A stretch of 64,000 bases of DNA from Squalus acanthias. Its lineage: Eukaryota. The DNA is taken from positions 136,588,001-136,652,000 of the forward strand of contig CM059431.1 of NCBI GenBank assembly GCA_030390025.1. The letters are read 5' to 3'. Shown piece by piece: positions 3,001 to 64,000 of this stretch (position 1 is its first letter; the number at the start of each line of letters is the position of its first letter). Both the position numbers and the translations under genes were made by a program. The notes under the pieces were generated by a model. It was not told the DNA's origin and made no database searches. It worked only from the letters and a program-made list of their open reading frames with translations.

Positions 3001-3073
3001 CGAGACATGGAGAATGAACTGTGTCTAACCGGGGACTGAAGAGTGACACATGAAGAAAGAACTGCCTCTAACC

Positions 3074-14119: not shown

Positions 14120-15627
14120 ATTTTGCAACATTCCTTAGACTCTGGATCAGTTCCGATGGAGTGGAGGGTGGCCAATGTAACCCCTCTTTTTAAAAAAGGA
14201 GGGAGGGAGAAAGCAGGGAATTATAGACCGGTCAGCCTGACATCGGTCGTGGGTAAAATGATGGAAGCAATTATTAAAGATGTCATAACAGACCATTTTG
14301 AAAGTGGCGACATGATAGGTCCAAGTCAGCATGGATTTGTGAAAGGGAAATCATGCTTGACAAATCTTCTGGAATTTTTTGAGGATGTTTCCAATAGGGT
14401 GGACAGGGGGGAACCAGTAGATGTGGTGTATTTGGACTTTCAGAAGGCCTTCGACAAGGTCCCACACAAGAGTTTGGTGAGCAAAGTTAAAGCACATGGA
14501 ATTGGGGGTAATGTGTTGACGTGGATTGAGAACTGGTTGGCACACAGGAAACAAAGAGTAGGAGTAAATGGGTATTTTTCAGAATGGCAGGCAGTGACCA
14601 GCGGGGTACCGCAGGGTTCGGTGCTGGGACCCCAGCTGTTTACATTATATATTAATGATTTGGACGAAGGGATTAAATGTAATATCTCCAAATTTGCGGA
14701 TGACACTAAATTGGGAGGCAGTGTGAACAATGAGGAGGATGCTAGGAGGCTACAGAGTGACTTGGACAGGTTGGGTGAATGGGCAAATGTATGGCAGATG
14801 AAGTACAATGTGGATAAATGTGAGGTTATCCACTTTGGTGGTAAAAATAGAGAGGCGGACTATTACCTGAATGGTGGCAGATTAGGGAAAGGGGAGTTGC
14901 AACGAGACCTGGGCGTCATGGTACATCACTCACTGAAGGTGGGAATGCAAGTGCAGCAGGCAGTCAAGAAAGCAAACGGAATGATGGCCTTCATAGCAAG
15001 GGGATTTGAGTACAGGAGTAGGGAGGTGATGCTGCAGTTGTACAGGGCCTTGGTGAGGCCACACCTGGAGTATTGTGCGCAGTTTTGGTCTCCTAACTAA
15101 AGGAAGGACATTCTTGCTATTGAGGGAGTGCAGCGAAGGTTCACTAGATTGATTCCTGGGATGGCCGGACTGACATATCAAGAAAGATTGGGTCAACTGA
15201 ACTTGTATCCTCTGGAGTTCAGAAGAATGAGGGGGGATCTTATAGAGACATTTAAAATCCTGACTGGTTTAGACAAATTAGATGCGGGCAGAATGTTCCC
15301 AATGTTAGGGAAAACTAGAACCAGGGGTCACAGTCTAAGGATTAAGGGGAACCCATTTAAGACTGACCTGAGGAGGAACTTCTTCACCCAGAGAGTGGTG
15401 AATCTATGGAATTCTCTTCCACAGAAGGTTGTTGAGGCCAGTTCGCTAAATATATTCAAAAGGGAGTTAGATATAACACTCACAACAAGGGGGATCAAGG
15501 GGTATGGCGAGAAAGCAGGAATGGGGTACAGAGGTAGCATGTTCAGAAATGAACGCATTGAATGGCGGTGCAGGCTCGAAGGACCAAATGGTCCACTCCT
15601 GTACCTATTTTCTATGTTTCTATGTTT
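14120..15627 (+). mobile_element. 5'-truncated CR1-clade LINE, copy 3; defective
   Basis: Nearly identical to copies 1 and 2, with the same junctions and the same TAA (15098-15100). Confidence 0.96.
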
Positions 15628-33600: not shown

Positions 33601-36600
33601 GAGAGTGAGACAAAGTGAATGAACTGCTTCTAACTGGGGAACGAAGTGCGAGACATGGAGAATGAACTGACTCTAACTGTGGAATGAAGAGCGAGACATG
33701 GAGAATGAACTGTGTCTAACCGGGGACTGAAGAGCGAGACATGAAGAATGAACTGTGTCTAACCGGGGACTGAAGAATGAGACATGGAGAATGAACTGTC
33801 TCTACCGTAAACTGAAGAGCGAGACATGGAGAATGAACTGCCTCTAACCATAAACTGATGAGCGAGACATGGAGAATCAATTGTCTTTAACCGGTGGCTG
33901 AAGAGAGAGACATGGAGAATGAACTGCCTCTAATCGGGGACTGAAGAGCGAGACATTGAGAATGAACTGCCTCTAACTGGGGAATTAAGACCGAGACATG
34001 GAGAATGAACTGCCTCTAACCGGGGAAGGAAGAGTATGACATGGAGAATGAACTGCCTCTAACCGTGGAATGATTAGTGAGACATTGAGAAGGAACTGTC
34101 TCTAACCGGGGACTGAAGAGCGAGACATGGAGAATGAACTGTCTCTAACTGGGGACTGAAGAGTAAGACATGGAGAATGAACTGTCTCTAACCGGGGACT
34201 GAAGAGTCGAACATGGAGAATGAACTGCCTCTAACTGGGGACTGAAGAGCGAGACATGGAGAATGAACTGTCTCTAACTGGGGACAGAAGCGTGAGACAT
34301 GGAGAATGAACTGCCTTTAACCAGGAATGAAGAGTGAGACATGGAGAATGAACTGCCTCTAACTGGGGAATGAAGAGCGAGACATGGAGAATGAACTGCC
34401 TCTATCCGGGGAATGACGAGCAAGACATGGAGAATGAACTGCCTCTCTCCGGGGACTGAAGAGTGCGATATGGAAAATGAACTGCCTCTAATCGGGGACA
34501 GAAGAGCGAGACATGGAGAATGAACTGTCTCTAACCAGAAACTGAAAAGTGAGACATGGAGAATGAACTGTCTCTAACCGGGGAATGAAGAGCAAGACAT
34601 GGAGAATGAACTGCCTCTAACTGGGGACTGAAGAGTGAGACATGGAGAACGAATTGTCTCTAACCGGGGAATGAATTGCGAGATATGGAGAATGAACTGC
34701 CTCAAACTGGGGACTGAAGAGTGAGATATGGAGAATGAAATGTCTCTAACTGTGGAATGAAGAGCGAGACATGGAGAATGAACTGCCTCTAACCGGGGAG
34801 TGAAGAGCGAGACATGACGAATGAACTTCCTCTAACAGCGGAGTGAAGAGCAAGACATGGAGAATGAACCGCCTCGAACCGGGCAATGAAGAGTGAGACA
34901 TGGAGAATGAACTGCCTCTAACCGGGGACTGAAGAGTGAGACATGGAAAATGAACTATCTCTAACCGGGGACTGATGAGAGAGACATGGAGAATGAACTG
35001 TCTCCAACCGGGGAATGGAATGCAAGATATGTAGAATGAACTGTCTTTAACTGGGGATTGAAGAGTGAGACATAGAAAATGAACTATCTCTAACCGGGGG
35101 CTGAAGAGCGAGACATGGAGAATGAACTGCCTCTGTACGGGGACTGAAGAGTGAGACATGCAGAATGAACATCCTTCAGCCAGGGAATGAAGAACTAGAC
35201 ATGGAGAATGAATTGCCTCTGAACGGGGTATGAAGAGTGAGACAGTCAGAACGAATAGCCTTTTGCCAGGGAATGAAGAAATAGACGTGGAGAATGAACT
35301 GCCTCTAGCCAGGGACTGAAGAGCGAGACATGGAGATTAAATTGCCTCTAATTGGGGACAGAGGAGCGAGAAATGGAGTATTAACTGTCTCTAACTGGTG
35401 TCTGAATAGTGAAACATGGAGAACGAACTTCCTCTAAGTGATGACCGAAGAGCGTGACACGTGAAATCAATTGTCTATGCGGGGAATGAAGACAGTGACA
35501 TGGAGAATGAACTGTGTCGAACCAGGTACGGAAGAGTGAGACATGGAGAATGAATTGCATCCAACCCGGGACTAGAGAGTGAGACAAAGTGAATGAACTG
35601 CTTCTAACTGGGGAACGAAGTGCGAGACATGGAGAATGAACTGACTCTAACTGTGGAATGAAGAGCGAGACATGGAGAATGAACTCTGTCTAACCAGGGA
35701 CTGAAGAGCGATACATGGAGAATCAACTGCCTCAAACCGGGGACTGAAGAATGAGACATGGAGAATGAACGGTCTCTAACCAGGGACTGATGAGAGAGAC
35801 ATGGAGAATGAACTGTCTCCAACCGGGGAATGAAATGCAAGATATGTAGAATGAACTGTCTCTAACCGGGAAATGAAGTGCGAGACATGAAGAATGAACT
35901 GTCCCTAACCGGGGACTGAAGAATGAGACATGGAGAATGAACGGTCTCTAACCGGGGACTGAAGAATGAGACATGGAGAATGAACTGTCTCCAACCGGGG
36001 AATGGAATGCAAGATATGTAGAATGAACTGTCTTTAACTGGGGATTGAAGAGTGAGACATAGAAAATGAACTGTCTCTAACCGGGGACTGAAGAGTCAGA
36101 CATGGAGAATGAACTGTCTCTAACCGTGGAATGAATGCAAGATATGTAGAATGAACTGTCTTTAACTGGGGATAGAAGAGCGAGACATGAAGAATGAACT
36201 GTCTCTAATCGGGGACTGAAGAGTGAGTCATGGAGCATGAACTGCCTCAAACCGGCGACTGAAGAGTGAGCCATGGAGAATGATCTGCCTCAATCCGGGG
36301 AATGAAGAGTGAGACATGGAGACTGAACTGTCTCTAACCGTAAACTGAAGAGTGAGACATGGAGAATTAACTGCCTCTAACCATAAACTGATGAGCGAGA
36401 CATGGAGAATGAATTGTCTTTAACCGATGGCTGAAGAGAGAGACATGGAGAATGAACTGCCTCTAATCGGGGACTGAAGAGCGAGACATTGAGAATGAAA
36501 TGTCTCTAACCGGGGACTGAAGAGCGAGACATGGAGAATGAACTGTCTCTAACTGGGGACTGAAGAGTGAGCCATGGAGAATGAACTGCCTTTAACTAGG

Positions 36601-38283
36601 AATGAAGAGCGAGACATGGAGAATGAAAAGCCTCTAACCGGGAACTGAAGAGCGAGACATGGAGAATGAAATGTCTATATACTGCGACTGAAGAGTGAGA
36701 CATGGAGAATGAACTGCCTCTATCCGGGGAATGACGAGCGAGACATGGAGAATGAACTGCCTCTATCCGGGGACTGAAGAGTGCGATATGGAAAATGAAC
36801 TGCCTCTAATCGGGGACAGAAGAGCGAGACATGGAGAATGAACTGTCTCTAACCAGGAACTGAAAAGTGAGACATGGAGAATGAACTGTCTCTAACTGGG
36901 GACTGAGGGCCAAGACATGGAGAATGAACTGCCTCTAACCGTGGAATGAATCGTGAGGCATTGAGAAGGAATTGTCTCAAACCGGGGACTGAAGAGCGAG
37001 ACATGGAGAATGAACTGTCTCTAATCGGGGACTGAAGAGTGAATCATGGAGAATGAACTGCCTCAAACCGGGGACTGAAGACAGAGACAATGAGAATGAA
37101 TTGTCTCTAACTGGGGACTGAAGAGTGTGACATGGATAATGAACTGTCTCTAACCGGGAAATGAAGTGCGAGACATGAAGAATGAACTGTCCCTAACCGG
37201 GGACAGACGAATGAGACATGGAGAATGAACAGTCTCTAACCAGGGACCGATGAGAGAGACATGGAGCATGAACTGTCTCCAACCGGGGAATGAAATGCAG
37301 GATATGTAGAATGAACTGTCTTTAACTGGGGATTGAAGAGTGAGACATGGAGAATGAACTGCCTCTAACCGGGGACTGAAGAGTGAGACATGGAGAATGA
37401 ACTGTCTCTAACCGGGGACTGAAGAGTGAGACATGGAGAGTGAACTTTCTCTAATCGGGGATTGAAGTGTGAGACATGGAGAATGAACTGCCTCTGACCG
37501 GGGGCTGAAGAGTGAGATATGGAGAATGAACTGTCTCTAATCGGGGACTGAAGAGTGAGTCATGGAGAATGAACTGTCTCAAACCAAGGACTGAAGATTG
37601 AGTCATGGAGAATGAACTCTGTCTAAACGGGGATTGAAGAGAGAGACATGGAGAATGAACTGTCTCTTATCGGGCATTGAAAAGTGAGACATGGAGAATG
37701 AACTGTCTCTAACCGGGAAATGAAATGCGAGACATGAAGAATGAACTGTCTCTAACCGCGGACTGAAGAGCGAGACATGGAGACTAACTGTCCTTAACCG
37801 AGGACTGAAGAATGAGACATGGAGAATGAACTTTCTCTAACCGGGAACTGATGAGAGAGACATGGAGAATGAACTGTCTCTAACCGGGGAATGAAATGCA
37901 AAATATGTAGAATGAACTGTCTTTAACTGGGGATTGAAGAGTGAGACAGGGACAATGAACTGTCTCTAACCGGGGACTGAAGAGTGAGGCATGGAGAAAG
38001 AACTGTCTCTAACCGGGGACTGAAGAGTGAGACATGGAGAATGAACTGTCTCTAACAGGTGACTGAAGAGTGAGACATGGAGAATGAACTTTCTCTAATC
38101 GGGGAATGAAGTGTGAGACATGGAGAATGAACTGCCTCTAACCGGGGCTGAAGGTGAGATATGGAGAATGAACTGTCTCTAATCGGGGACTGAAGAGTGA
38201 GTCATGGAGAATGAACTGTCTCAAACAGGGGACTGAATGTGAGACATGGGGAATGAACTGCTTCTTACCTGGGGCTGACGAGT

Positions 38284-39270
38284 CATAGAGTTATAGAGTA
38301 ATAACGGCACAAAAGGAGGCCCTTCGGCCCATCGTGTCCGTGCTGGCTCTCTTCAGAGCGTCGAGCCAGTCCCATTCCCCCGACCTATCCCCGTAGCCCG
38401 GCAAGTTTATTTCCCTCAAGTGCCTATCCAGTCTCCCCTTGAAAACATTGAGTGTCTCCGCTTCCAACACTTCCGTCGGCAGCGAGTTCCAGGTCGTCAA
38501 CACTCGCTGCGTAAAAAAGTTTTCCCTCCCATCCCCAGTGTATCTCTTGCCCAAAACTTTAATTCTGTGTCACTTAGTCTTTGTACCATCAACTAGTGGG
38601 AACAGCCATTCTCCATCTAACCTATCCAAACTCGTCATAATCTTGTACACCTCTATCAAATCACCTCTCAACCTCTTTGCTCCAATGGAAACAAATCCAG
38701 CTTCTCCAACCTATCCTTATAGTTAAGATCCCCCATCCCCGGAACCATTCAGGCAAATCTCCTCTGACCCCTCTCAAGGGCCTTCACATCCTTCCTAAAG
38801 TCTGGTGGCCAGAATTGGACGCAATACTCCAGCGCTTTATATAGATTCAGCAAAACTTCTCTACTTTTGTACTCAATATCTCTATTTATGAAACACAAGA
38901 TCCCATATGCTTTGCAAAGCACTCTCTCAATATGTCCTGCCACCTTCAGGGATCTATGCACATTAATTCGCTTCATCGATCCTCCCTGTTACTTCATCAA
39001 AAAATGCAATTAGATTGGTCAAACATGATCTGCCTTGTACAAATCCGTGTTGGCTCTGATTAATTAGCTTAAACCTCTCCAATTGCCAGTTAATTTTATC
39101 CTTGATTATTGTTTCTAAAACTTTCCCCACCACTGATGTTAAACTGACCGGCCTGTAGTTACTAGGATTGTCCTTAGAACCTTTCTGGTTCAATGGTGTC
39201 ACATTTGCCACTTTCCAATCCTCAGGCACCTCCCCCGCATCTAGGGAAGATTGGAAAATTATGGCAAGTG
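38284..39270 (-). mobile_element. 5'-truncated, internally deleted CR1-clade LINE of a different subfamily
   Basis: Minus-strand frames give IFQSSLDAGEVPEDWKVANVTP..NYRPVSLTS..QHGFVQGRSCLTNL, then VHRSLKV..EYCVQFW, then NFFTQRVLTTWNSLP. The 3' tail is CTCTATAACTCTATG. The segment containing YLDF and FADD is missing. Confidence 0.93.
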
Positions 39271-40662
39271 TGTGGGAAGAAAAATGAACTGCCACAAACC
39301 GGTGAATGAAGAGCGAGACATGGACACTAAACTGCCTCTAACCGGGGAATGCAGAGTCAGAAATGGAGAATTAAATGTCTCTAACTGGGGACTGAAGTGT
39401 CAGACATGGAGTTTTAAATGTCTCTAACTGGTGACTGAAGTGTGAGACATGGACACTAAACTGTCTCAAACCGGGGACTGCAGAGTCAGAAATGGAGAAT
39501 TAAAAGTCTGTAACCGGGGACTGCAGAGTCAGAAATGAAGAATTAAATGTCTCTAACTGGGGACTGAAGTGTGAGACAGGGAGAATGAACTGTCTCTAAG
39601 AGGGGACTGAAGAGTGAGACATGGAGAACAAACTGTCTCTAACTGGGTAGTTAAGAGCGAGACATGGAGAATGAACTGTCTCTAACCGGGGAATGAAGTG
39701 CGTCACAGGAAGAATGAATTGTCTCAAAATGGGGACTGAAGAGTGAGACATGGAGAATGAACTGTCTCTAACCGGGGGCTGAAGAGTGAGACGTGGAGAA
39801 TGAACTATCTCTAACCGCGGGCTGAAGAGTGAGACATGGAGAATGAAGTGTCTCTAACCGGGGAATGAAGTGCGACACAGGAAGAATGAATTGTCTCAAA
39901 CCGGGGACTGAAGAGTGAGACGTGGAGAATGAACTGTCTCTAATCGGGGACTGAAGAGCGAGACATGGAGAATGAACTGTCTCTCACCGGGGACTGAAGA
40001 GTGAGACGTGGAGAATGAACTGTCTCTAACCGCGGGCTAAAGAGTGAGACATGGAGAATGAACTGTCTCTAACCGGGGAATGAAGTGCGACACAGGAAGA
40101 ATGAATTGTCTCAAACCGGGGACTGAAGGATGAGAAATGGAGAACGAACTGTCTCTAATCGGGGACTGAAGAGTGAGACATGGAGAATGAACTGTCTCTA
40201 ACCGGGGATAGAAGAGCGAGTCATGGAGAATGAACTGCCTCAAACCGGGGACTGAAGAGTGAGACATGGAGAATTAACTGTCTCTAAACGGGGACTGAAG
40301 AGAGAGACATGGAGAATGAACTGTCTCTAATCGGGGACTGAAGAGTGAGACATGGAGAATGAACTGTCTCTAACCAGGGAATGAATTGCGAGACATGGAG
40401 AATGACCTGCCTCTGAACGGGGACTGAAGAGCGAGACATGGTGAATGAACTGTGTCTAACCGGTGACTGAAGAGTGAGACATGGAGAATGAACTGTCTCT
40501 AACTGGGGACTGAAGGTTGAGACATGAAGAATGAACTGCCTCTAACCGGGGACTGAAGAGTGAGACATGGAGAATGAACTGTCTCTAACCGGGGACTGAA
40601 GAGCGAGACATGGAGAATCAGCTGTCTCTATCCGGGGACTGAAGAGAGAGACATGGAGAAAG

Positions 40663-41832
40663 TGTAGGCTTCGCTAAATCCCCCAGAAACTCGAACAGAG
40701 TCCTAAAGGGAGTGATTTTTGGACTTTTCATACAAACTTGGGATGATGGGGCCTAAGTGAGTGATTTGATGTAAAAACCTAAATATCAGGGTAGAAAAAA
40801 CCTGAGGAAACTGATTTTTTTGAATCTTACTGTTGGGAGAGTCACCGTTCACAGACACAAGCTGGGAGGGCCGTGGCCGGGCAGTGAACAAATCAAGCTG
40901 TCTGGGAATTGTTTACACTACAAATCCTACCCAGGTGCAAGAGACAAAGCAAAAAGTCAAAAACACATCCCCAGGGGCAAACAAGATGCTGGAAACCTAA
41001 AAACGATTCAATGACAATATAACTTCGATCACACAGTTTCATAGCCATTATCCCATCAAAAAAAACAACCAACTAGGTACCCTCAGAACAGATTTAAAAG
41101 CCCGCCAATAAACCTAGGATAATAGGGTGGAGATTTGGCGCGTAGATAAGGCTGTGTTTAAATCGGAAAACGATCAAGGCATGTTTAACACTGAGCAAAA
41201 ACCATCGGAACTGGCAAGCCCGCCAAAAACTAGACAATTGGACGAAGCAAGGTTCATTTTGCAAACAAAAGGAATTTGTTTTAGTAAGTGTTTTTTAGGC
41301 GCGAAAAGAAACAGTATAATTTGGAAGCCTGTGCCATAATCTCTCTCTCTTTCGGACTGGCTGACGACGCGGACACAGCTCTCTCCCTACTCCAGCAAAA
41401 CCTACCACAAGCCACGAGGAAGAAGGCCAGCACACAAGAAGGCACCTGAGCGACTGTCTGAGTGACCAACAGACACCTCGCAGCAACAAGGGCCTTACGG
41501 AGTCTTTTTAAACAAAAGACTCTATTATCCTGTCAAGAATTCGTTGGTGAGCATTATCCCTGATCACCTGAAACCAAAAGCCTAGCCGGATAGTGGGATC
41601 TTTGGGAGGGATAAGGTTTTGTATGATATATTGTCATTTCCCTCGCTTGTACCGTGTGTTCCCCGAATCTGTGTTTAAGTAATAAGTGTGTTTCAAGTTT
41701 GTTACCTTTTGCTTTTAATAAAGTAAAATTCTTTCATCAGAACCTGTTTACTGCAATTTTGTTCACAACCCCTAAATAAGTCCAAAGTCTAGGAACCGGA
41801 GGGGTGTGGGAGCGATTATGATACCCCCTACA
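40663..41832 (+). repeat. 5' LTR (1170 bp)
   Basis: Begins TGTAGG and ends CCTACA (6-bp terminal inverted repeat). Direct repeat of 47704-48885. AATAAA at 41717-41722. Confidence 0.95.
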
Positions 41833-41836
41833 TAAA

Positions 41837-41854
41837 TGACGACCGCGGCAGGAC
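41837..41854 (+). promoter_or_regulatory. Primer binding site, tRNA-Arg(UCG)-type
   Basis: TGACGACCGCGGCAGGAC lies 4 nt after the LTR. It matches 17/18 to TGGCGACCGCGGCAGGAC, the complement of the 3' end of vertebrate tRNA-Arg-TCG (recalled from memory). Confidence 0.85.
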
Positions 41855-41907
41855 TTTGGCGAAAGGGTTGTGAAGTAGTAAATGGTGGTTTTGAGTTGAG
41901 AACAAAA

Positions 41908-43659
41908 ATGGAAGAGAGAATGTCATCCTATGTATATAAAAAAGTAAATATCACCAAGAAATGGGTCCTCAGGCTGTTGCATGCTGAACGTCCTATGGAC
42001 GCTGCAGCTGCCTGGGCTGAGAGCAAGGAATACAATAAGTCTGTGCAGAAAGCCATATGGTTGGTCTGCTCCCACAAACAAATGCAGCTTATGGGGAAGC
42101 GCATTCAGGCTCTCACAGAAGAGCTAAAGGAAGAGAGCCAACTGTCCCGTGCCAGAGCAAAAGCAGGGGATAGGTTGTCAGCAGAGCTCGGCACAAAAGA
42201 TCAGGAACAGTCACAGATGCTGGAGGAACACCGTGCCAGTAAGGGATACCTCCAGTGTCAGGCCACCGAGGCCAAAAGTAGTGAACTGGCATTGCGGGAA
42301 GAGAACATCCGCCTTGCCAACCAATTAAGGGAACTCACAGAGAAGTGAAACGATGTTAAGGCAGCCTACAGAGTAGCCAGTACAAGGGAGTTTGAGGTAG
42401 GGGACCACGGCTCCTGTCAGAAGCAGATTGAGAGTCTGAACCTTGCTCTGTCCAAGACAAAAGGCATGTCGTGCCTGATAAGCCCGGGTGCGGCCCAAGC
42501 AGACCTGGAGGAGCAGGAGGAGACTGTTCGACTACCACGTGTGGCGCCAAGGAGAAGCTTGGTTAGGCAGCAGGAGGGGCAGACAATCTGTGAGGCTGAC
42601 AGGGAGTGCACACCAGCACCTGTGGCGCCGAGTTTTGACTCGGTCTGGCAACAGGGAGAGGGGGGCGAACCGATGCAGGAGAAGTCGGAGCCAGGGCCAA
42701 TGTGCCCAGCACGACAGCAAAAATTCGGCCCGCCCGCCGGTGGTGGAGGTCAGGGACCCCTTGAAAGTCAATTCTTGGCTCCCCACGTTACACAACAGCT
42801 TAGGGCTATGGTAAGCCACCTGAGTAAACTTACCCAAAAGGAAAACCCCTCAGTCCACTTCATGGAGGTGGAGCAATCAGCAGGCCTCAACCATTTTGAC
42901 GATGCCGAAATGGCAAAATTGCTCCTGTTCTCATTAGATGGCAAATTGTACCAGTCACTCTCGACTGAGAGCAAGAGAGGACAGAACGGATATGCTGCCG
43001 TCAGGGAGGAAGTTTTAGAGGCCATGGGAATGAATGAGGGAAGGCCTTTCTCCCGGATGGAGGAAACAGTGCAGCTCGCAGGGGACACCCCACAGGCTTT
43101 CGCAGGCAGGCTGTGGCCGGTGTACAGGGGTGCTTGTAATGGGGCTCTCGACAGGGCTAACCTGAACAGGGACGAGCTGGCCCACTGGCTCCGTAGCCTA
43201 GTGGCAAACAGCTTGCCACGAGTCAAAGCCAAGGCTGAGCTTTGGTTTGACCCAAGTGAGCCCCGGGTCACCGAGGAGGCAGTGGTCAGGCAACTGACCC
43301 TAGCCTACCGGAACGGTAGGGGAGCTGAAGACACCCCACCGAAAGGGAAGGTGCATGAGATAAAGCCCAGTCAGGATAAGAAGGAGTGGCACCAGGAAGG
43401 TGGTAAACCTTCCGACACGAAGCGTAACTGCTTCGGGTGCGGGAAGAGGGGGCATTGGAGAAAGGACTGTAGAAATCCCTGGAAGGATATGCTAACAAAG
43501 AATTCCCCAGCTTTCGCCCCAAAAGAAGAGGCACCGACCTCTTCCCCCACACTGGACACAATAGTAGCGGCCATCAGAGTCCTGCTTGGTGGCCCAGGGA
43601 AGTTAGCTACAGCCACTGGCGCATTCATTCCATCTGCCCCCCCTAAAGCAGACCTATGA
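41908..43659 (+). pseudogene. gag: Gag polyprotein (~583 codons) with N-terminal coiled coil and C-terminal CCHC zinc knuckle; one in-frame stop
   Basis: ORFs 41836-42348 and 42466-43659 share one frame, separated only by TGA at 42346-42348. AAAATGG start context at 41908. CFGCGKRGHWRKDC at 43429-43470. Confidence 0.88.
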
Positions 43660-44614
43660 CTAGAACCAGCGCAGGCTGTCTACCTGTGTTCCCCGGGATA
43701 CGATGTTAAGAAGGGGGTGGAGAATGTTGGGGAGATGTTTGGTGGACACCGGAGCTGCCAGCACGGTGGTCCATTCAGAAGACCTGACCAATTCACCCAG
43801 GTTTAACGGGGTCCCCTACAGTTTAATGGGAATCAAAGGGAACGAGCAGGCTGGGGCAATGTCCAAACGTTTGGACATAGATTTAGGATCCCTCCATACC
43901 ACGTGAGAGGGTAACCAAAAGGCGGACAAGTTGGCCAAGCATGGGGCCAGGGAAGGAGAGTTATGGGATCCCTATAAAGCAGGCCCGGTAGCTGCAATCC
44001 GGGACAAGGGAGGCACACAGGGGGTAGATTTGCCCCCGGACTTAAAGCAGGTCCAAGCCCAGAATCACGTCTTTAAGGCCAGCCTGGTAAAGAGAGAGAG
44101 TGGGGAGTCCCTAGAAGTTCCGTTCAGGGCAGAGGACGCGATTTTTAAACAGGTTCACTGGCAAGCAGCCAGTAACCTGGGGATTTTGTACTAGAAAAAT
44201 GGGCTGCTGTTAGAACCCCAGAGAACCCACGAGTGGGAGATTGACCAATGCAAACTGCTTAAACCTAAAAGGGAACAGCCGGCAAAGGTGGACTGCCCCC
44301 AAGTTAGAAATCGTCAGCCAGCCGCAGCTGTGGCAGACGCACAAGGTGAAGCGGGACGGACAGTGTGTTGTCTCACAGGAGAGAACACTCCACCGCTTAT
44401 GTGGGTCTCAAGCACACCCCCAGTGGCCAGAGCCCTAGAAGGTCTCCACGCACACCACAGCAAAGGCTACTGTGGCCACAGGTGTATCTGTTTCGAGGGT
44501 CCCACCCAAAGAGGGTTGCAATCCGAAGAAGAGCGCCCAAGAGCAGGGAGCGTTCTAAAGTTCGGGATTCCCAGCCTACAGCCTCCAACATTGAGGTTTT
44601 CACAGGAGAGGTAG
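43660..44614 (+). pseudogene. pol: Deleted pro-pol: retropepsin protease, RNase H C-terminal helix, probable integrase-flanking remnants; no RT, no DDE core
   Basis: CLVDTGAASTVV (DTG at 43745-43753). After TGA at 43904-43906 the same frame reads EGNQKADKLAKHGA. No YxDD, HHCC or DDE motif seen. Confidence 0.8.
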
Positions 44615-45033
44615 TACTGGGAGAAGAGAGAGAGAATGGTCCCCCACCTGCAGCCTCAGGCTGGGAGGAGCCCACAGATATGAACGAGGGTGCTGCAGCC
44701 ACAACAAAGGGGGTAGTGTGCGGCAGCACAGGACGCAGCTGGGATGTTAAGATACCCCCAGCGGTTTTGAGGAAGGCCTTCTGGGTTCGGCGGTACAGGC
44801 CGCACTACACCCAGGTGTACAAGCCATCCAGAGGCCACATAAGGCAGAGACTAAACAGGATTTAACCTGGCCATCCGAAGACGGGCGGCAAATGTACAGA
44901 ACTTTCGGTTTTAAGTAATTGCAGTTTTGGTGGTTATGGGTTATCATTAGTTTAGTTGTTTGTAGAGTTTTTTTTAAGTTTAAGGGCTTGATTAATGATC
45001 CAGCCAGAGAACCTTTCTGGGACATGGATATAT

Positions 45034-45054
45034 GTTTTGTGTGTGCCCCTACAG
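45034..45054 (+). promoter_or_regulatory. Putative env splice acceptor
   Basis: GTTTTGTGTGTGCCCCTACAG ends 13 nt upstream of the signal-peptide ATG at 45068. Confidence 0.5.
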
Positions 45055-45067
45055 AAAGGACTTCGGG

Positions 45068-47419
45068 ATGACAAGGTTTCTGCTCCTGCTCGCCCTGGTA
45101 GGGGTGAGCATCGGTGACCGAGGTGACGTGGAGGACTCCCACATCTATGGGTGCTCAGGAGTGAGAGCACCAGTCGTCACCGCAGGGGGTGGCGAGCGGG
45201 GAGTGGAGGAGCTCGCCATATACTTCCACGAGGGAAGGTGGCCAGGGTGGCTGGGGTCCAACTCTACTAAATACTCCAACCAGCCCGGGTTCACGTACGG
45301 GGAGGCCTCCCTCCCATGCCCCAGAATACAGGTCGTTGCCACAAGGGTCAGTGTCACCGAGGGGAAGCGTGTGTGCCTTACCTGTAAGGGACGAATTCCC
45401 CTGAATAGGTGGTGGTGGCTCAGGAAGCTGAGCAGGGACGCAGGGGACCATACAGCCGACTGGGAAAGATTAGGGAACGACACCCACCGGACAATCACAG
45501 GGACCCAGGGAGGAGTGAGTGTTTGTTGGGATAAGTGGTGGGAGTCGGAACAGGGAGTCTATGTTTGTATGTGGGGATCAGAGGAAGCCTGACCACAGGG
45601 GTATCCATCATCTTCTCCAGCCAATGGCAGGATGCCGGGGAGGGGATAGGGTGGGATTCTAGCCTGCATAGGTGCGTGGTCCCACACATTCCGGTCCCAG
45701 TTAATGCCACTGAACTCGTGGCACACACCCGAAAGCCCCTATCCACGACCCAGGTACCGAAAACCCTGGAAGAAGAGTGCCCTACCACCACTAAGGGACA
45801 AGGGAATGGGTTAGTCCTAGTACCAACCGAAAAGGTAATATACCAGGGGGTACACTATGCAGTAGCTTCAGTAATATTAAACCTCACCGAGGTATACTTA
45901 CCTGAGTGATGTCCTAAGGAGACGGAGCAACTGTACCAGGCCCTGCTAAAGGAAATGTTTAGGAAATGTTACGAATTTGATTTTGCCAATATAGACAAAG
46001 TAGAGCTATACAGAATACAACCTGAGAACCCTATGGGCACGGGTAGACAAAGAAGGGGAGCCTGGAATGATGTCTTCACTGCCTATAGTGCAGGGTCCTC
46101 TGTAATAAATAGCCTGGATGACATGGAATTACAGACACAGATAAATGTTTTAAAAACCCAGTTAAGAAAGATCCTGAAGTATGGGAACACCGTGGTAGGC
46201 TCAGAACTACATGAGGACCAAGCTATGACGGTTAATTTAAAGGAAATTATTGCAGAATTGGAAAGGCATGCCAAAACAGTAAATGCACTCATACGGGAGG
46301 ATAGGAATGCATCGGATCAGGCTGCACAGAATGAGGTGTGTGTGCTGTACGAGGCATGGTAGCTGGGCGAGGGCCGTAGCAACCTGGAGGATTTAAAGCA
46401 AGGTTTAGTCCCCTCCTGGATCAGCAACAAGCACCTTGCAGCCCTCCACCCGTTTAGTAATTCGCTGAGCCCATGCCAATTTCGTTTAGCCTCTGAAGCC
46501 TACCCTGTCCCAATAGATTGTGGGCGTTCAAATCACACTATCATGGGGATAGTAGTGAGAATGCCGGTCATGAATGGGACAGCCCGACCCGTACCGGTAT
46601 ACAGGGTGGAGAACATTGGAGTCATTCAAGGGGGTGCACAAATCCGTTTTACAGCGGTCCCACCTTATGTCATAAAGTGGGAGCACGCCATCACAGGTAC
46701 TGACCTCTCCGGGTGCGGAGCCGGGGTTCACACATAATACTGTGTCCCCAGCACTTGAACGCCTATTCCAAACCACAGTGCGGGTTTAAAGCTGCTGGCG
46801 CACGACTTATCAATTTTACCATGGAGGTGATGGCACACGGCCATTTTCCCCACAGGTAGCATATATAGGGGGTGGGACATATTGTGTCACCACAGGTGCG
46901 TCCCACTACCAGCATGGACACTTCTGGTGTCCGGTAAGTGACAGCAGTTTCTGCTTTAAACCCGAGGCAGAAGTTCAAGTGGCCCAGGAACGGATTGTGC
47001 CCATTTCTGAACCCTACACTGTTCACCTCACTGTAACAGAAAACATCACCAACCTGCAAAAGTATGTGACTTACTTTGGATGTAAAATTCCCCCTCTACC
47101 CAACATCTTACCACCCTACTTAAAGCTGTAGAGATTTCAAAAAAAACATTTCTACACCCTGGAACAGAAAACAGTTGTAATAGCGGCAGAGATTTTGGAT
47201 ATAGTAGTTCCACCCTGGTGGGATATTTTCGAGAATAAAGAGGTGCCTTCCTGGATCAGGATGGCTTTCCATCTTTTGGTGGTCTGCCAGCTCGGGATAA
47301 TTCTCTACCTGCTGTGTACAAAGTGCAGGGGAAGGGACGAGGAGCTCCGCTTCAGACACGAAGGGACTTGGGGAGTGCATCAAAATAAAGGCTATGGCCA
47401 GGGATGGAACGAACCTTGA
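45068..47419 (+). pseudogene. env: Envelope glycoprotein, class I F-type fusion protein with N-terminal Ig-like domain; several stops and frameshifts
   Basis: Signal peptide MTRFLLLLALVGVSIG. Furin site RQRR (46045-46056) followed by GAWNDVFTAYSAGSSVINS and a heptad-like helix. Cys-rich region, NxT/S sequons, and membrane-proximal PPWWDIF. TM segment MAFHLLVVCQLGIILYLLC (~47261-47317). Confidence 0.85.
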
Positions 47420-47692
47420 ATTTTGTCTTTTAATAAAAAAAAATTGTATGTGTGTTGTGTCATTTTTATGATGTGTATGATGTGTTTTTTCCAAGCTGTG
47501 CAGGGGTGTCGGACCCTCTCCGTGCTTGGATGTGAAATAAAGATTGATTCTTACCTGTATGTACCTGAAACACCACTTTCAAAAGGGGAATGAATGTTTG
47601 GGTTTTTAGTTTAGGTAATACAGGGGAAGGTTTGTTTTCGGGGATCGTAAATTTTGCACACCTGTTAATGATACTAATTCAGTTTTAGTATC

Positions 47693-47703
47693 AAAGTGGG
47701 GGA
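47693..47703 (+). promoter_or_regulatory. Polypurine tract
   Basis: AAAGTGGGGGA immediately before the TG of the 3' LTR. Confidence 0.85.
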
Positions 47704-48885
47704 TGTAGGCTTCGCAAAATCCCCCAGAAACTCGAACAGAGCCCTAAAGGGAGTGATTTTTGGACTTTCAATACAAACTTGGGATGATGGGGCCTAAGTG
47801 AAGTGAATTGATGTAAAAACCTAAAGATCAGGGTAGAAAAAACCTGGGGAAACTGATTTTTTTGAATCTTACTGTTGGGAGAGACACCTTTCACAGACAC
47901 AAGCTGCGAGGGGCGTGGCCGGGCAGTGAACAAATCAAGCTGTCTGGGAATTGTTTACACTAAAAATCCTACCCAGGTGCAAGAGACAAAGCAAAAACTC
48001 ACAAACACATTCAAATATGAATCCCAGGGGCAAACAAAAACTGGAAATCTAAAAACGATTCAATGACAATATAACTTCGATCACACAGTTTCACAGCCAT
48101 TATCCCATCAAAAAAACAATCAACCGGGTATCCACAGAACAGATTTAAATGCCCGCCAACAGACCTAGAACAATAGGGTGGAGATTTGGCACGTAGATAA
48201 GGCTGTGTTTAAATCGGAAAACGATCAAACCATGTTTAACACTGAGCAAAAACCATCGGAACTGGAAAGCCCGCCAAAAACTAGACAATTGGACGAAGCA
48301 AGGTTGATTTTGCAAATAAAAGGAATTCGTTTTAGGAAGGGATATTTGGGCGCAAAAAAGAAACAGTATAATTTGAAAGCCTGTGCCATAATCTCTCTCT
48401 CTTTCGGAAAGTGCTGACGACGTGGACACAGCTCTCACGCTGCTCCAGCAAAACCTACCACAAGCCACGAGGAAGAAGGCCAGCACGCAAGAAGAAACCA
48501 GAGCGACTGTCTGAGTGACCATCAGACACCTCGCAGCAACAAGGGCCTTACGGAGTCTTTTTAAACAAAAGACTCTAATACCCTGACAAGTATTCGTTGT
48601 TGAGCATTATCCCTGATCTCCTGAAACCAAAAACCTAGCCAGATAGTGGGATCTTTGGGAGGGATAAGGTTTTGTTTGATATATTGTCATTTCCCTCGCT
48701 TGTACCGTGTGTTCCCCGAATCTGTGTTTAAATAATAAGTGTGTTTCAAGTTTGTTACTTTTTGCTTTTAATGAAGTAAAATTCTTTCATCAGAACCTGT
48801 TTACTGCAATTTTGTTCACAACCCGTAAATAAGTCCAAAGTCTAGGAACCGGAGGGGTGTGGGAGCGATTAAGATACCCCTTACA
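47704..48885 (+). repeat. 3' LTR (1182 bp)
   Basis: TGTAGG...CTTACA. Colinear with the 5' LTR, with scattered substitutions and an ~11-bp indel near 48010. Confidence 0.95.
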
Positions 48886-51800
48886 TCTGTACAGCCCCAT
48901 CCTATTACCCATCTCTGTATAGTCCCATCCTATTATCCATGGCAGTACGGCCCCATCCTTTTAAACATCTCTGTACGGCCCCATCCTATTACCCATCTCC
49001 GTATGGCCCCATCCTATTACCCATCTCTGTACGGCCCCATCCTATTACCCATCTCTGTACAGCCCCATCCTATTACCCATCTCTGTACGGCCCCATCCTA
49101 TTACCCATCTCTGTACGGCCCCACCCTATTACCCATCTCTGTACGGTCCCATCCTATTGCCCATCTCTGTATGGCCCCATCCTATTACCCATCTCTGTAC
49201 GGCACGATCTTATTACCCATCTCTGTACGGCCCCATCCTATTACCCATCTCTGTACGGTCCCATCCTATTACAAATCTCTGTATGGCCCAATCATATTCC
49301 CCATCTCTGTACGGCCCCATCCTATTCCCCATCTCTGTACAGCCCCATCCTATTACCCATCTCTGTATGGCCCCATCCTGTTACCCGTCTCTGTACGGCC
49401 CCATCGTATTACCATCTCCGTACGGCCCACCCTATTACCCATCTCTGTACGGCCCCATCCTATTACCCATCTCAGTACGGCCCAATCCTGTTACCCATCT
49501 CATTGGACCCATCCTATTACCCATCTCTTTGGGTCCCATCCTGTTACCCATCTCTGTTCGGCCCCATCCTTTTACCCTTCATTGTACGGCTCCATCCTAT
49601 TACACATCTCTGTGCTTCCCAATCCTATTACCCCTCTCTGTACGCCCCATCCTATCACCAATCTCTGTACTGCCCCATCCTATTAGCCATCTCTGTACGG
49701 CCCCATCCTATTACCCATCTCTGTACAGCCTATCCTATCACCAATCTCTCTACTGCCCCATCCTATTATCCATCTCTGTACGGCCCCATCCTATTACCCA
49801 TCTCTGTACGGCCCCATCCTATTACCCATCTCTGTACGGCCCCACCCTATTACCCATCTCTGTACGGCCCCATCCTATTACCCATCACTGTACGGCCCCA
49901 TCCTATTACCCATCTCTGTACGGCCCCATCCTATTACCCATCTCTGTACAGCCTATCCTATCACCAATCTCTGTACTGCCCCATCCTATTACCCATCTCT
50001 GTACGGCCCCATCATATTACCCATCTCTGTACGTCCCCATCCTATTACCCATCTCTGTACAGCACCACCCTATTACCCATCTCTGTATGGCCCCATCCTA
50101 TTACCCAACTCTGTATGGTCCCATCCTACTACCCATCTCTGTACAGCCCCATCCTATGACCCATCTCTGTATGGCCCCATCCTATTACCCATCTCTGTAC
50201 GGCCCGATCCTATTACCCAACTCTATATGGCCCCACCCTGTTACCCATCTCTGTATGGCCCCATCCTATTACCCATCTCTGTACGGCCACATCCTATTAC
50301 CCATCTCTGTACGCCCCATCCTATTACCCATCTCTTTACGGCCCATCCTATTACACATCTCTTTACGGTCCCATCCTATTGCCCATCTCTGTACGGCCCC
50401 ATCCTATTACCCATCTCTGTACGGCCCCATCCTATTACCCATCTCTGTACGGCCCCACCCTATTACCCATCTCTGTACGGCCCCATCCTATTACCCATCT
50501 CTGTATGGCCCCATCCTATTACCCATCTCTGTAAGGCCACATCCTATTACCCATCTCTGTACGCCCCATCCTATTACCCATCTCTTTACGGCCCATCCTA
50601 TTACACATCTCTTTACGGTCCCATCCTATTGCCCATCTCTGTACGGCCCAATCCTATCACCAATCTCTGTGCGGCCCCATCCTATTACCCATCTCTGTAC
50701 AGCCGATCCTATCACCAATCTCTGTACTGCCCCATCCCATTACCCATCTCTGTACGGCCCCATCATATTACCCATCTCTGTACGTCCCCATCCTATTACC
50801 CATCTCTGTACAGCACCACCCTATTACCCATCTCTGTATGGCCCCATCCTATTACCCAACTCTGTATGGTCCCATCCTACTACCCATCTCTGTACAGCCC
50901 CATCCTATTACCCATCTCTGTATGGCCCCATCCTATTACCCATCTCTGTACGGCCCGATCCTATTACCCAACTCTATACTGCCCCACCCTGTTACCCATC
51001 TCTGTATGGCCCCATCCTATTACCCATCTCTGTAAGGCCCCATCCTATTACCCATCTCTGTACGCCCCATCCTATTACCCATCTCTATACGGCCCATCCT
51101 ATTACACATCTCTTTACGGTCCCAGCCTATAGCTCATCTCTGTACGGCCCCATTCTATTACCCATCTCTGTACGGCCCCATCCTATTACCCATCTATGTA
51201 CAGCCCCATCCTATTACCCATCTCTGTACAGCCCCATCCTATTACCCATCTCTGTACGGCCCCATCCTATTACCCATCTCTGTACGGCCCCATCCTATTA
51301 CCCATCTCTGTACAGCCTATCCTATCACCAATCTCTGTACTGCCCCATCCTATTACCCATCTCTGTACGGCCCCATCATATTACCCATCTCTGTACGTCC
51401 CCATCCTATTACCCATCTCTGTACAGCACCACCCTATTACCCATCTCTGTATGGCCCCATCCTATTACCCAACTCTGTATGGTCCCATCCTACTACCCAT
51501 CTCTGTACAGCCCCATCCTATTACCCATCTCTGTATGGCCCCATCCTATTACCCATCTCTGTACGGCCCGATCCTATTACCCAACTCTATATGGCCCCAC
51601 CCTGTTACCCATCTCTGTATGGCCCCATCCTATTACCCATCTCTGTAAGGCCCCATCCTATTACCCATCTCTGTACGCCCCATCCTATTACCCATCTCTT
51701 TACGGCCCATCCTATTGCACATCTCTTTACGGTCCCATCCTATTGCCCATCTCTGTACGGCCCCATCCTATTACCCATCTCTGTACGGCCCCATCCTATT

Positions 51801-54800
51801 ACCCATCTCTGTACGGCCCCACCCTATTACCCATCTCTGTACGGCCCCATCCTATTACCCATCTCTGTACGGCCCCATCCTATTACCCATCTCTGTACGC
51901 CCCATCCTATTACCCATCTCTTTACGGCCCATCCTATTACACATCTCTTTACGGTCCCATCCTATTACCCATCTCTGTACGGCCCAATCCTATCACCAAT
52001 CTCTGTACGGCCCCATCCTATTACCCATCTCTGTACAGCCTATCCTATCACCAATCTCTGTACTGCCCCATCCTATTACCCATCTCTGTACGGCCCCATC
52101 ATATTACCCATCTCTGTACGTCCCCATCCTATTACCCATCTCTGCACAGCACCACCCTATTACCCATCTCTGTATGGCCCCATCCTATTACCCAACTCTG
52201 TATGGTCCCATCCTACTACCCATCTCTGTACAGCCCCATCCTATTACCCATCTCTGTATGGCCCCATCCTATTACCCATCTCTGTACGGCCCGATCCTAT
52301 TACCCAACTCTATACTGCCCCACCCTGTTACCCATCTCTGTATGGCCCCATCCTATTACCCATCTCTGTAAGGCCCCATCCTATTACCCATCTCTGTACG
52401 CCCATCCTATTACCCATCTCTTTACGGCCCATCCTATTACACATCTCTTTACGGTCCCAGCCTATAGCTCATCTCTGTACGGCCCCATCCTATTACCCAT
52501 CTCTGTACGGCCCCATCCTATTACCCATCTATGTACAGCCCCATCCTATTACCCATCTCTGTACAGCCCCATCCTATTACCCATCACTGTGCTGCCCCAT
52601 CCTATTACCCATCTCTGTACAGCCCCATCCTATTACCCATCTCTGTACGGTCCCATCCTATTACCCATCTCTGTACGGTCCCATCCTATTACCCACCTCT
52701 GTACGGCCCCATCCTATCACCCATCTCTGTATGGCCTCATCGTATTACCCATCTCTGTATGGCCCCATAATATCACCCATCTCTGTACGGCCCCATCCTA
52801 TTACACATCTCTGTACGGTCCCATCCTATTACCCATCTCAGTATGGCCCCATCCTATTACCCATCTCTGTACGACCCATTCTATTACCCATCTCTGTACC
52901 GCACCATCCTATTACCCATCTCTCTCGTGCCCCATCCTATTACCCACCTCTGTACAGCCCCATCCTACTACCCATTTCAGTGCAGCCCCATCCTATTACC
53001 CATCTCTGTACGGCCCCATCCTATTACCCATCTCTGTACTGGCCCATCCTATTACACATCTCTGAACAGCATCATCCTATTACCCATGTCTGTACGGCCC
53101 CATCCTATTACCCATCTCTGTACGGCCCCATCCTATTACCCATCACTGTACGGCCCCATCCTATTACCCTGCTCTGTATGGCCCCATCCTATTACCCATC
53201 TCTGTACGGCCCTATCCTATTACCCTTCTCTGTACGGCCCCATCCTATTACCCATCTCTTTGGGCCCCATCCTATTACCCACCTCTGTACGGCCCCATCC
53301 TATTACCCATCTCTATAAGACACCATCCTATTACCCTTCATTGTACGGCTCCATCCTATTGCCCATCTCTGTGGTTCCCCATCCTATTACCCCTCTCTGT
53401 ACGCCCCATCCTATCACCCATCTCTATATGCCCCATCCTATTATCCATCTCTGTACGGCCCCCTCCTATTACCCATTTCTGTCTGGCCCCATCCTATTAA
53501 ACATTTCTATACGGCCCCGTCCTATTACCCATCTCTGTATGCCCCATCCTATCACCCATCTCTGTACGGCCCCGACCTATTACCCATCTCTGTCTGGTCC
53601 CATCCTATTACCCATCTCTGTACGGCCCCATCCTATTACCCATCTCTGTATGGTCCCATCCTATTACCCATCTCTGTACGGCCCCATCCTATTACCGATC
53701 TCTGTACAGCCCCATCCTATTACCCATCTCTGTACGGCCCCATTCTATTAACCATCTCTGCACAGCCCCATCCTATTACCCATCTCTGCGCTGCCCCCTC
53801 CTATTACCCATCTCTGTGCTGCCCATCCTATTACCTATCTCTGTACGGTCCCATCCTATTACCCATCTCTGTATGGCCCCATCCTATCACCCATCTCTGT
53901 ACGGCCCCATCCTGTTACCCATCTCTGTACAGCCCCATCCTATCACCCATCTCTGTACGGCCCCATCCTATCACCCATCTCTGTACGGTCCCAGCCTGTT
54001 ACCCATCTCTGTACGGCCCCATCCTATTACTCATCTCTTACGGCCCCATCCTATCACCCTTCTCTGTACGGCCCCATCCTATTACACATCTCTGTACGGC
54101 CCCATCCTATTACCCATCTCTGTACGGCTCCTTCCCATTACCCATCTCTCTAGTGCCCCATCCCATAACCCATCTCTGTACTGCCCCATCCTATTACCCA
54201 TCTCAGTACGGCTCCATCCTATCACCCATCTCTGTACAGCCCCATCCTATTACACATCTCTGTACGGCCCCATCCTATTACCCATCTCTGTACGGCCCCA
54301 ACGTATTACCCTTCTCTGTACGGCTTAATCCTATTACCCAAATTCTGTACAGCCCCATCCTATTACCCATCTCGGTACGGCGCCATCCTATTACACATCT
54401 CTGCCCGGCTTTATCCTATTTCCCATCTCTGTACGTCCCCATTCTATTACCCGTCTCTGCCTGGCCCCATCCTATTACCCATTTCTGTACTGCCCCATCC
54501 TATTACCCATCCCTCTACGGCCCCCTCCTATTACCCATCTCTGTATGGCCACAACCTATTACCAATCTCTGTACGGCCCCATCCTATTACCCATCTCTGT
54601 ACGGACCCCTCCTATTACCCATCTCTGTATGGCCCCATCCTATTACCAATCTCTGAAATGCCCCATCCTATTACCAATCTCTGAAAGGCCCCAACCTATT
54701 ACACATCTCCGTATGACCCCATCCCATTATCCATCTCTTTGGGCCCCATCCTATTACCGTTCCCTGGACGGCTCCATCCTATTACCCATCTCGATATGTC

Positions 54801-57800
54801 CCCATCCTATTACCAAGCTCTGCACGGCCCCATTATATTACCCATCTCGATATGGCCCCATCCTATTACCCATCTCTGTACCGCCCCGTCCTTTTACCCA
54901 TCTCTGTACGCCCCATCCTATCACCCATCTCTGTACGGCCTCGACCTATTACCCATCTCTGTCTGGCCCCATCCTATTACCCATCCATGTACGGCCCCAT
55001 CCTATTCCCCATCTCTGTACAGCCCCATCCTATTACACATCTCTGTACAGCCCCATCCTATTACCCATCTCTGTACGGCCCCATCCTATTATCCATCTCT
55101 GTACAGCCGCATCCTATTACCCAACTCTGTACGGCCCCATCCTATCACCCATCTCTGTATGGACCCATCCTATTACCCATCTCTGTACGCCCCATCCCAT
55201 TACCCATCTCTGTATGGCCGCATCTCATTATCCATCTCTGTACAGCCCCTTCCTATTACCCATCTTTGTACGCCCCTTCCTATTACCCATCTATGTACGC
55301 CCCATCTTATTACCCATCTCTGTACGGCCCCATTCTATTAACCATCTCTGTACGGCCCCATCCTATTACCCATCTCTGTACGGCCCCATCCTATTACCCA
55401 TCTCTGTACTGCCCCATCCTATTACCCATCTCTGTACGGCCCCATCCTATTACCCATCTCTGTACGCCCCATCCTATTACCCATCTCTGTATGGACCCCT
55501 CCTATTACCCATCTCTGTATGGCCCCATCCTATTACCAATCTCTGAAATGCCACATCCTATTACCAATCTCTGAAAGGCCCCAACCTATTACCCATCTCT
55601 GTACGACCCCATCCTATTACCCATCTCTTTGGGCCCCTTCCTATTACCGTTCTCTGGACGTCCCCATCCTATTACCCATCTCGATATGGCCCCATCCTAT
55701 TACCCAGCTCTGCTCGGCCCCATTATATTACCCATCTCGATATGGCCCCATCCTATTACCCATCTCTGTACCGCCCCGTCCTATTACCCATCTCTGTACG
55801 CCCCATCCTATCACCCATCTCTGTACGGCCCCGACCTATTACCCATCTCTGTCTGGCCCCATCCTATTACCCATCTATGTACGGCCCCATCCTATTCCCC
55901 ATCTCTGTACAGCCCCATCCTATTACCAATCTCTGTACAGCCCCATCCTATTACCCATCTCTGTACGGCCCAATCCTATTATCCATCTCTGTACAGCCGC
56001 ATCCTATTACCCATCTCTGTACGGCCCCATCCTATCACCCATCTCTTTATGGCCCCATCCTATTTCCCATCTCTGTACGCCCCATCCCATTACCCATCTC
56101 TGTATGGCCGCTTCTCATTATCCATCTCTGTACAGCCCCTTCCTATTACCCATCTTTTTACGGCCCCATCCTATTACCCATCTCTGTACGGCCCCATCCT
56201 ATTACCCATCTCTGTACGGCCACATTCTATTAACCATCTCTCTACGGCCCCATCCTATTACCCATCTCTGTACAGCACCATCCTATTACCCATCTCTGTG
56301 CTGCCCCATCCTATTACCCATCTCTGTGCTGCCCATCCTATTACTTATCTCTGTACGGTCCCATCCTATTACCCATCTCTGTGTGGCCCCATCCTATCAC
56401 CCATCTCTGTACGGCCCCATCCTATTACCTATGTCTGTACGGCCCCATCCTATTACCCATCTCTGTACAGCCGCATTCTATCACCCATCTCTGTACTGTC
56501 CCATCCCATAACCCTTCTCTGTACGGCCCCATCCTATCACCCATCTCTGTACAGCCCCATCCTATTCCACATCTCTGTACGGCCCCATCCTATTACCCAT
56601 CTCTGTACGGCCCCAACGTATTACCCATCTCTGTATGGCTTAATCCTATTACCCAAATTCTGTACAGCCCCATCCTATTACCCGTCTCGGTACGGCTCCA
56701 TCCTATTACCCATCTCTGCCCGGCTTTATCCTATTTCCCATCTCTGTACGTCCCCATTCTATTACCCATCTCTGCCTGACCCCATCCTATTACCCATCTC
56801 TGTACTGCCCCATCCTATTCCCCATCTCTGTACGGCCCCCTCCTACTACCCATCTCTGTATGGCCACAACCTTTTACCAATCTCTTACGGCCCCATCATA
56901 TTACCCATCTCTGTACGGCCCCCTGTTATTACCCATCTCTGTATGGCACCATCCTATTACCAATCTCTGAAAGGCCCCAACCTATTACCCATCTCGATAC
57001 GACCCCATCCTATTACCCATCTCTTTGGGCCCCATCCTATTACCGTTCTCTTGTCGGCCCCATCCTATTACCCATCTCGATATGGCCCCATCCTATTACC
57101 CAGCTCTGCTCGGCACCATTCTATTACCCATCTCGATATGGCCCCATCCTATTACCCATCTCTGTACTGCCCCATCCTATTCCCCATCTCTGTACGGCCC
57201 CCTCCTACTACCCATCTCTGTATGGCCACCACCTATTACCAATCTCTTACGGCCCCATCATATTACCCATCTCTGTACGGCCCCCTGCTATTACCCATCT
57301 CTGTATGGCACCATCCTATTACCAATCTCTGAAATGCCCCATCCTATTACCAATCTCTGAAAGGCCCCAACCTATTACCCATCTCGATACGACCCCATCC
57401 TATTACCCATCTCTTTGGGCCCCATCCTATTACCGTTCTCTTGTCGGCCCCATCCTATTACCCATCTCGATATGGCCCCATCCTATTACCCAGCTCTGCT
57501 CGGCCCCATCCTATTACCCATCTCGATATGGCCCCATCCTATTACCCATCTCTGTACGGCCCCATCCTATTACCCATCTCTGTATGGCACCATCCTATTA
57601 CCCATCTCTGTACGGCCCCATCCTATTACCCATTGCTGTTCTACCCCTCCTATTACCCATCTCTGTATGGCCCCATCCTATTACCCATCTCTGTATGGCA
57701 CCATCCTATTACTCATCTCTGTACGGCACCATCCTATTACCCATCTCTGTTCTACCCCATCCCATTACCCATGTCTGTACGGCCCCATCCTACTATCCAT

Positions 57801-63800: not shown

Positions 63801-64000
63801 ACCCTTCTCTGTACGGCCCCATCCTATTACCCATCTCTGTACGGCCCCATCCTATTACCGTTCTCTGTACGGCCCCATCCTATTACCCATCTCTGTACGG
63901 CCCCATCCTATCACCCATCTATGTACAGCCCCTTCCTATTACCTATCTCTGTATGGCCCCATCCTATTACCCATCTCTGTACGTCCCCATCCTATTACCC
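48886..64000. repeat. 28-bp C-rich tandem satellite (consensus CCCCATCCTATTACCCATCTCTGTACGG); runs off the right edge
   Basis: Continuous 28-bp monomers, occasionally 27 bp, with local higher-order duplications. Confidence 0.98.

Follow-up and report, generated by a model that had tools for sequence, protein, structure and literature searches.

The window analysed here, a 64,000-nucleotide stretch of Squalus acanthias DNA (assembly GCA_030390025.1, contig CM059431.1, forward-strand positions 136,588,001 to 136,652,000), carries a provirus of 8,223 bp at 40663-48885, pol-deleted and with its TG...CA ends intact. This provirus lies between two different satellite arrays, one built of a 43-bp unit on its left and the other of a 28-bp unit on its right. 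Gag-pol-env order is kept between its two long terminal repeats (LTRs), with most of pol deleted. The features of the locus are the following:

1..40662, forward strand, 43-bp satellite array, extending past the left window edge and interrupted by fragments of CR1 long interspersed elements (LINEs)
40663..41832, forward strand, 5' LTR, 1170 bp, with intact TG...CA
41837..41854, forward strand, primer-binding-site-like stretch, 4 nt past the 5' LTR, assigned by its position
41908..43659, forward strand, gag-like frame with one internal stop
43664..43903, forward strand, aspartyl-protease-like remnant (RVP E 0.0097, under the curated cut-off)
43907..45067, forward strand, pol remnant; the gag-env spacing of ~1.4 kb is too short for a whole pol
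45068..47419, forward strand, env-like gene with stops and frameshifts and an immunoglobulin (Ig)-like N-terminal part
47693..47703, forward strand, polypurine tract preceding the 3' LTR
47704..48885, forward strand, 3' LTR, 1182 bp, with intact TG...CA
48886..64000, forward strand, 28-bp satellite array, ~542 copies in the window, extending past the right edge

The limits of the element are fixed independently of its flanks by the primer-binding-site-like stretch after the 5' LTR, the polypurine tract before the 3' LTR, and the matching termini of the two LTRs, both of which start with TGTAGG and finish with TACA. The left junction, at 40662/40663, reads ...CATGGAGAAAG/TGTAGG and passes from 43-bp satellite into the element; the right junction, at 48885/48886, reads ...TTACA/TCTGTACAGCCCC and passes from the element into 28-bp satellite. 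Comparison of the bases flanking the element on the left and on the right (AAAG and TCTG, GAAAG and TCTGT, AGAAAG and TCTGTA) reveals no 4-6 bp target-site duplication (TSD). Shifting the boundaries by up to 6 bp at each end, with lengths of 4-8 bp, yielded a single match in 845 combinations, TGTA, which was rejected because it lies inside both LTRs. A true TSD would have decayed to the present state, at 6% change per site, with P <= 8e-4; point mutation cannot explain its absence.

The two arrays show no relationship to each other. No 12-mer or longer word is common to the parts of the window left and right of the element, on either strand. All 384 matches to the 43-bp core word lie to the left of the element and all 244 matches to the 28-bp core word to its right, none of them inverted. 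The likeness of the two units is not above that of shuffles (p 0.36 forward, 0.74 reverse), and kinship of the satellite units with each other or with the element likewise does not exceed shuffled expectation (p 0.10-0.74). The window contains no N. A first-pass annotation of this DNA had given both junction sequences, and they read exactly as written there; it had also stated that no 4-6 bp duplication is present and that neither satellite occurs on the other side, and the flank comparison and core-word counts agree with it on both.

The 43-bp array is detected over 3-40660, with CR1 islands, and its final unbroken block (39283-40662) adjoins the 5' LTR. The 10 monomers nearest the 5' LTR differ from the majority unit by 6.7%, compared with 11.8% in the main 43-bp block (a mean that leaves out 11 of 526 monomers as poorly phased), and the first 10 28-bp monomers past the 3' LTR differ from theirs by 6.1%, compared with 10.1% in the array. 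Array edges are usually decayed. Both LTR ends therefore appear to sit in former array interiors, with the other half of each array missing. Flanks that both resemble array interior imply that one of them was replaced, and they favour rearrangement over insertion at a natural boundary. Taken together, the missing TSD, the intact ends and the unrelated, interior-like flanks support the locus as a rearrangement junction, not a plain insertion, in line with the earlier proposal of a deletion or translocation breakpoint.

Over 1168 aligned columns the two LTRs differ by 69 substitutions (Kimura two-parameter distance 0.062), with six gap events besides, and the differences are spread evenly along their length. 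The spectrum comprises 33 transitions and 36 transversions, and 7 of the changes are CpG-type; its richness in transversions was considered as a sign of two subfamilies, a reading that comparison with contigs from public sequencing runs did not bear out. Of the 18 A/T differences, 13 have their A in the 3' LTR (p 0.096), as do 28 of the 41 differences in which either LTR has A (uncorrected p 0.028), which is a hint only of unequal ageing of the two LTRs.

To compare both LTRs with the family at large, contigs of four of the 15 listed public runs, which may derive from species other than that of the window, were aligned to the 3' LTR plus the right junction (1376 bp). The LTR family is abundant in all four (138-3380 contigs in each), so partners for an exchange exist. 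Forty of 108 variable places were listed, and dropping three outside the LTR left 37 LTR sites for comparison; letter shares are sums of depth over contigs, not copy numbers, and contigs drop rare variants. At 31 of these sites the letter other than the window's takes up 70% or more of the depth in each of two runs, X1 and X2; the window's letter is found in the 3' LTR alone at 23 of them and in both LTRs at seven, and one site is three-state. At the remaining six sites the two LTRs agree with each other. The seven shared minority letters stand at LTR positions 89, 131, 230, 259, 807, 810 and 1061, and the share of depth taken by the window letter is 0-28% at five of these positions and does not exceed 1.7% at 810 and 1061 in the four runs. 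Coincidence from independent ageing would produce 0.24-0.38 such letters, so most of the length of both LTRs is best assigned to a single minority lineage; over positions 89-1061 the 37 sites reveal no discordance between them. Separately, near position 48870, seven contigs of X1 and 19 of X2 leave the LTR by its 3' tip with other letters, which suggests an LTR subfamily that would carry ~40 extra bases lacking in both window LTRs.

We consider it somewhat probable (about 0.58, this and the weights given to the competing explanations being judgements, not computed values) that ectopic homologous exchange by way of proviral sequence gave rise to a real and old deletion or translocation junction, which the provirus now marks. 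Of two members of the LTR family, one would have resided in the 43-bp array and the second, most simply as a solo LTR, in the 28-bp array, and a crossover would have linked the DNA left of the first to the DNA right of the second. Since nearly the whole element comes from one lineage, the crossover would have fallen close to the outer end of an LTR, or it would have involved a sister copy from that minority lineage, or LTR-to-LTR conversion would have come after it. Were both elements on the same chromosome and in the same orientation, the intervening DNA would have been lost and no reciprocal product left, so that absence of a reciprocal product would not refute an exchange. The provirus itself is a passive scar, with no function implied.

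The shared letters restrict where such an exchange could have taken place. With an unrelated partner, they confine the crossover to the outermost 88-130 bp of the 5' LTR or the outermost 121 bp of the 3' LTR, the latter space widening to 372 bp if the match at position 1061 is a coincidence. This amounts to ~3-6% of the element for an unrelated full-length partner; had an unrelated solo LTR been the partner, the available share would be ~8-11% in the 5' LTR or 10-31% in the 3' LTR. The first-pass view of the provirus as a chimera of two proviruses stands insofar as the rearrangement ran through the provirus, and fails for unrelated partners recombining just anywhere, given the seven shared minority letters between 89 and 1061. 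The subfamily letters by which it proposed to locate the crossover disclose no switch at 89-1061 among the 37 sites compared.

Published cases establish that the mechanism, in general terms, has precedents: proviruses without a TSD have been described at rearrangement junctions, and the human K222/K111 recombinant of HERV-K(HML-2) is the closest precedent. It has pCER:D22Z8 on its 5' side and CER:D22Z3 on its 3' side; two proviruses lying in repeat arrays are held to have recombined or to have undergone conversion, of which there are signs, and some recombinants switch near the LTR end (PMC4425911). The window provirus is similarly flanked by two different repeats, in a cartilaginous fish. The K222/K111 repeats are related (71.8% alike), whereas the arrays in the window are not; both parents are known there and the 5' LTR is missing, whereas here two whole LTRs remain. 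The gibbon SERV-K/MER11 provirus 10_73510506-gib, whose TSDs do not match and whose flanks come from separate places, has been read as a translocation by inter-provirus recombination (PMC11379458). It shares with the window element the combination of two LTRs, no matching TSD and flanks of different origin, but its LTRs cluster discordantly and its reciprocal solo LTR was found, while the window LTRs share minority letters. In plants, 198 intact copies of pear Cassandra lack a TSD against 1175 with one (PMC4079214), possible conversion is reported in 25% of LTR pairs (PMC7251063), and intact elements without TSD are attributed to unequal recombination (PMC4079214; PMC7251063). These elements resemble ours in having two LTRs, intact ends and no TSD; the accessible accounts do not describe them as joining two satellite arrays. 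The weight given to ectopic exchange sets the confinement of the crossover against the frequency with which recombination yields TSD-less intact elements.

Several observations weigh against an exchange. The shared minority letters fit a single integration more simply. No divergence step that would mark a crossover was found between the LTRs (scan p 0.08-0.96), nor was any recent conversion tract seen, the longest identical run being 55 bp. In addition, none of 32 listed contig pieces (of a set with 5764 more) bridges the right junction with 31 letters on each side, although absence of the locus from the runs carries no weight as evidence, because contigs lose rare variants. Discordant LTR lineages are typical of a recombinant provirus, not obligatory, and sister partners or tip crossovers hide discordance.

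Foremost among the alternatives, if still unlikely, is uncoordinated integration, in which integrase would have joined the two ends of one viral DNA to two distant sites, one in either array, and repair would have fixed the resulting deletion or translocation. A single step would account for the intact ends, the absent TSD and the shared minority letters across both LTRs, which this mechanism predicts and which match the observation; and of the 69 LTR differences at least 23 are confined to the 3' LTR, the pattern that ageing of once-identical LTRs would produce. Uncoordinated joining is described as a cause of deletions and other rearrangements (PMC2857682). The published case, from cultured cells, resembles the history proposed here for the window locus in involving one viral DNA, no short duplication and a host rearrangement, but 14 of the 15 sites in that study carry a 4-5 bp duplication, and the aberrant one had a damaged LTR end and a 273-bp duplication (PMC2857682). 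Both LTR ends of the window provirus are intact, and the mechanism would further require the two arrays to have been close together in the nucleus.

It is rather improbable that a normal insertion was followed by non-homologous deletion or satellite turnover that replaced one flank up to the LTR edge. Such a history agrees with the shared minority letters and with recent turnover of the left array, where three CR1-bearing cassettes are 99.2-99.8% identical, but the break would have had to stop within ~2 bp of the LTR edge without clipping the LTR. The base two positions upstream of the 5' LTR is altered relative to the monomer in a way shared by four of 447 other monomers with the same prefix, a weak hint of a repair scar that is tempered by the same dinucleotide being altered in 31 of 448 monomers.

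Slighter still is the chance of an assembly mis-join through two copies of the element. The lack of bridging contig pieces noted above and the near-identical recent duplicates held by the left array speak for it, but it would need two near-identical copies with different flanks, and the provirus is old and individual: its LTRs are 6% apart, and the best run contains 0.41 of its internal words, or ~3% divergence. The shared minority letters moreover argue against two unrelated halves, and no N gap interrupts the locus. Insertion exactly at a pre-existing boundary of the arrays, with its TSD lost by point mutation, agrees with the shared minority letters too but is very improbable, given the low probability of TSD decay (P <= 8e-4) and flanks that are each monomeric up to the LTR and interior-like.

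A literature search found no published description of a matching case, with most subscription papers beyond its reach. What is new here is a clean case in a cartilaginous fish, with a real-looking and well-defined junction. The locus would be a datable, base-exact record of two unrelated satellite domains becoming neighbours, with a retroelement as the joint; if uncoordinated integration is the correct reading, it would be a germ-line fossil of an event by which the two satellite domains became fused. Its LTRs are sister-like while its flanks are unlike, a tension that offers a sharp test for separating a tip crossover from an integrase-made rearrangement.

The coding content of the provirus is degraded. 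The gag-like frame contains a CCHC zinc knuckle near 43426-43473 (zf-CCHC E 0.0026, under the curated cut-off), and the two gag relatives found are a Logan protein (51%) and a Rhinoraja longicauda protein (39%). Reverse transcriptase (RT) and integrase families gave no match in the three stop-free pieces scanned. Pieces of the env-like gene are 59-73% identical to Pristiophorus japonicus proteins (three env relatives). The env frame opens with an Ig-like domain at 45320-45570 (Pfam Ig_3 E 0.0024, under the cut-off), and a Chiloscyllium relative carries the name "Ig-like domain-containing". Among 10 protein relatives, seven come from sharks or skates and one from a frog. Two database proteins, P0005 and P0012, combine an env-family piece with domains of host type, a Niban-like one in Pristiophorus and cadherin repeats in P0012, and the fusions are possibly gene-model artefacts. 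A tRNA scan found none, and the window holds no second copy of the provirus. In metagenome contigs the LTR-start pattern had no matches and none of 130 pattern matches to the env piece was confirmed; the three matches to gag in viral contigs were not confirmed either.

The fold of env was approached through a natural relative, P0006, one of the Pristiophorus japonicus proteins, which is 59-72% identical to two window pieces. Its predicted model is of low confidence (mean predicted local distance difference test score 55.9, predicted template-modelling score 0.30), and the best PDB matches of that model are the fusion (F) glycoproteins of respiratory syncytial virus, human metapneumovirus and measles virus (best E 1.1e-5, with template-modelling scores of only 0.12-0.21), foamy-virus env appearing at rank 23. 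Against a viral structure library, chuvirus-type glycoproteins scored best, followed by F fragments. Pfam Fusion_gly had no match in the env pieces scanned, and an env alignment searched against sequences of solved structures gave coiled-coil-level matches only. In lokiretroviruses, gag, pol and env lie in that order between LTRs, env is similar to pneumo/paramyxovirus F, and the lineage is defined by RT phylogeny; the hosts listed in the accessible part of the report do not include cartilaginous fishes (PMC7947760). The window provirus has the same gene order, and the low-confidence model of its env relative may point to a similar F-like match; unlike lokiretroviruses, it has no detectable RT, on which membership rests. 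The retroviral family of the window provirus is left unnamed.

Further observations concern the arrays themselves. Within 39283-40662 the monomers approach the majority unit toward the LTR, and the last 10 are closer to it than those in every 10-monomer window of the main block. A CR1 fragment is present in three copies (3074-4580, 8537-10035 and 14120-15627) that are 99.2-99.8% identical, spaced ~5.5 kb apart and each accompanied by the same 5-bp duplication, TAACC; they represent one insertion triplicated along with the surrounding 43-bp satellite. A different CR1 fragment at 38284-39282, is in the opposite orientation and 65% identical to the other CR1 copies over 220 bp, and the phase of the 43-bp satellite does not carry on across it. 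The 28-bp satellite is found in all four public runs compared (three organisms), so it is not private to the assembly, and tandem 28-bp joints are seen in contigs of runs X1, X2 and X9. The CR1 sequence in the window gave no match to the 28-bp unit (p 0.86) and was rejected as its origin. In one frame the unit (48886-48913) translates as LYGPILLPI, which we take to resemble a LINE RT motif, and this reading would begin where the 3' LTR ends, a coincidence with a chance of about 1-3 in 28.

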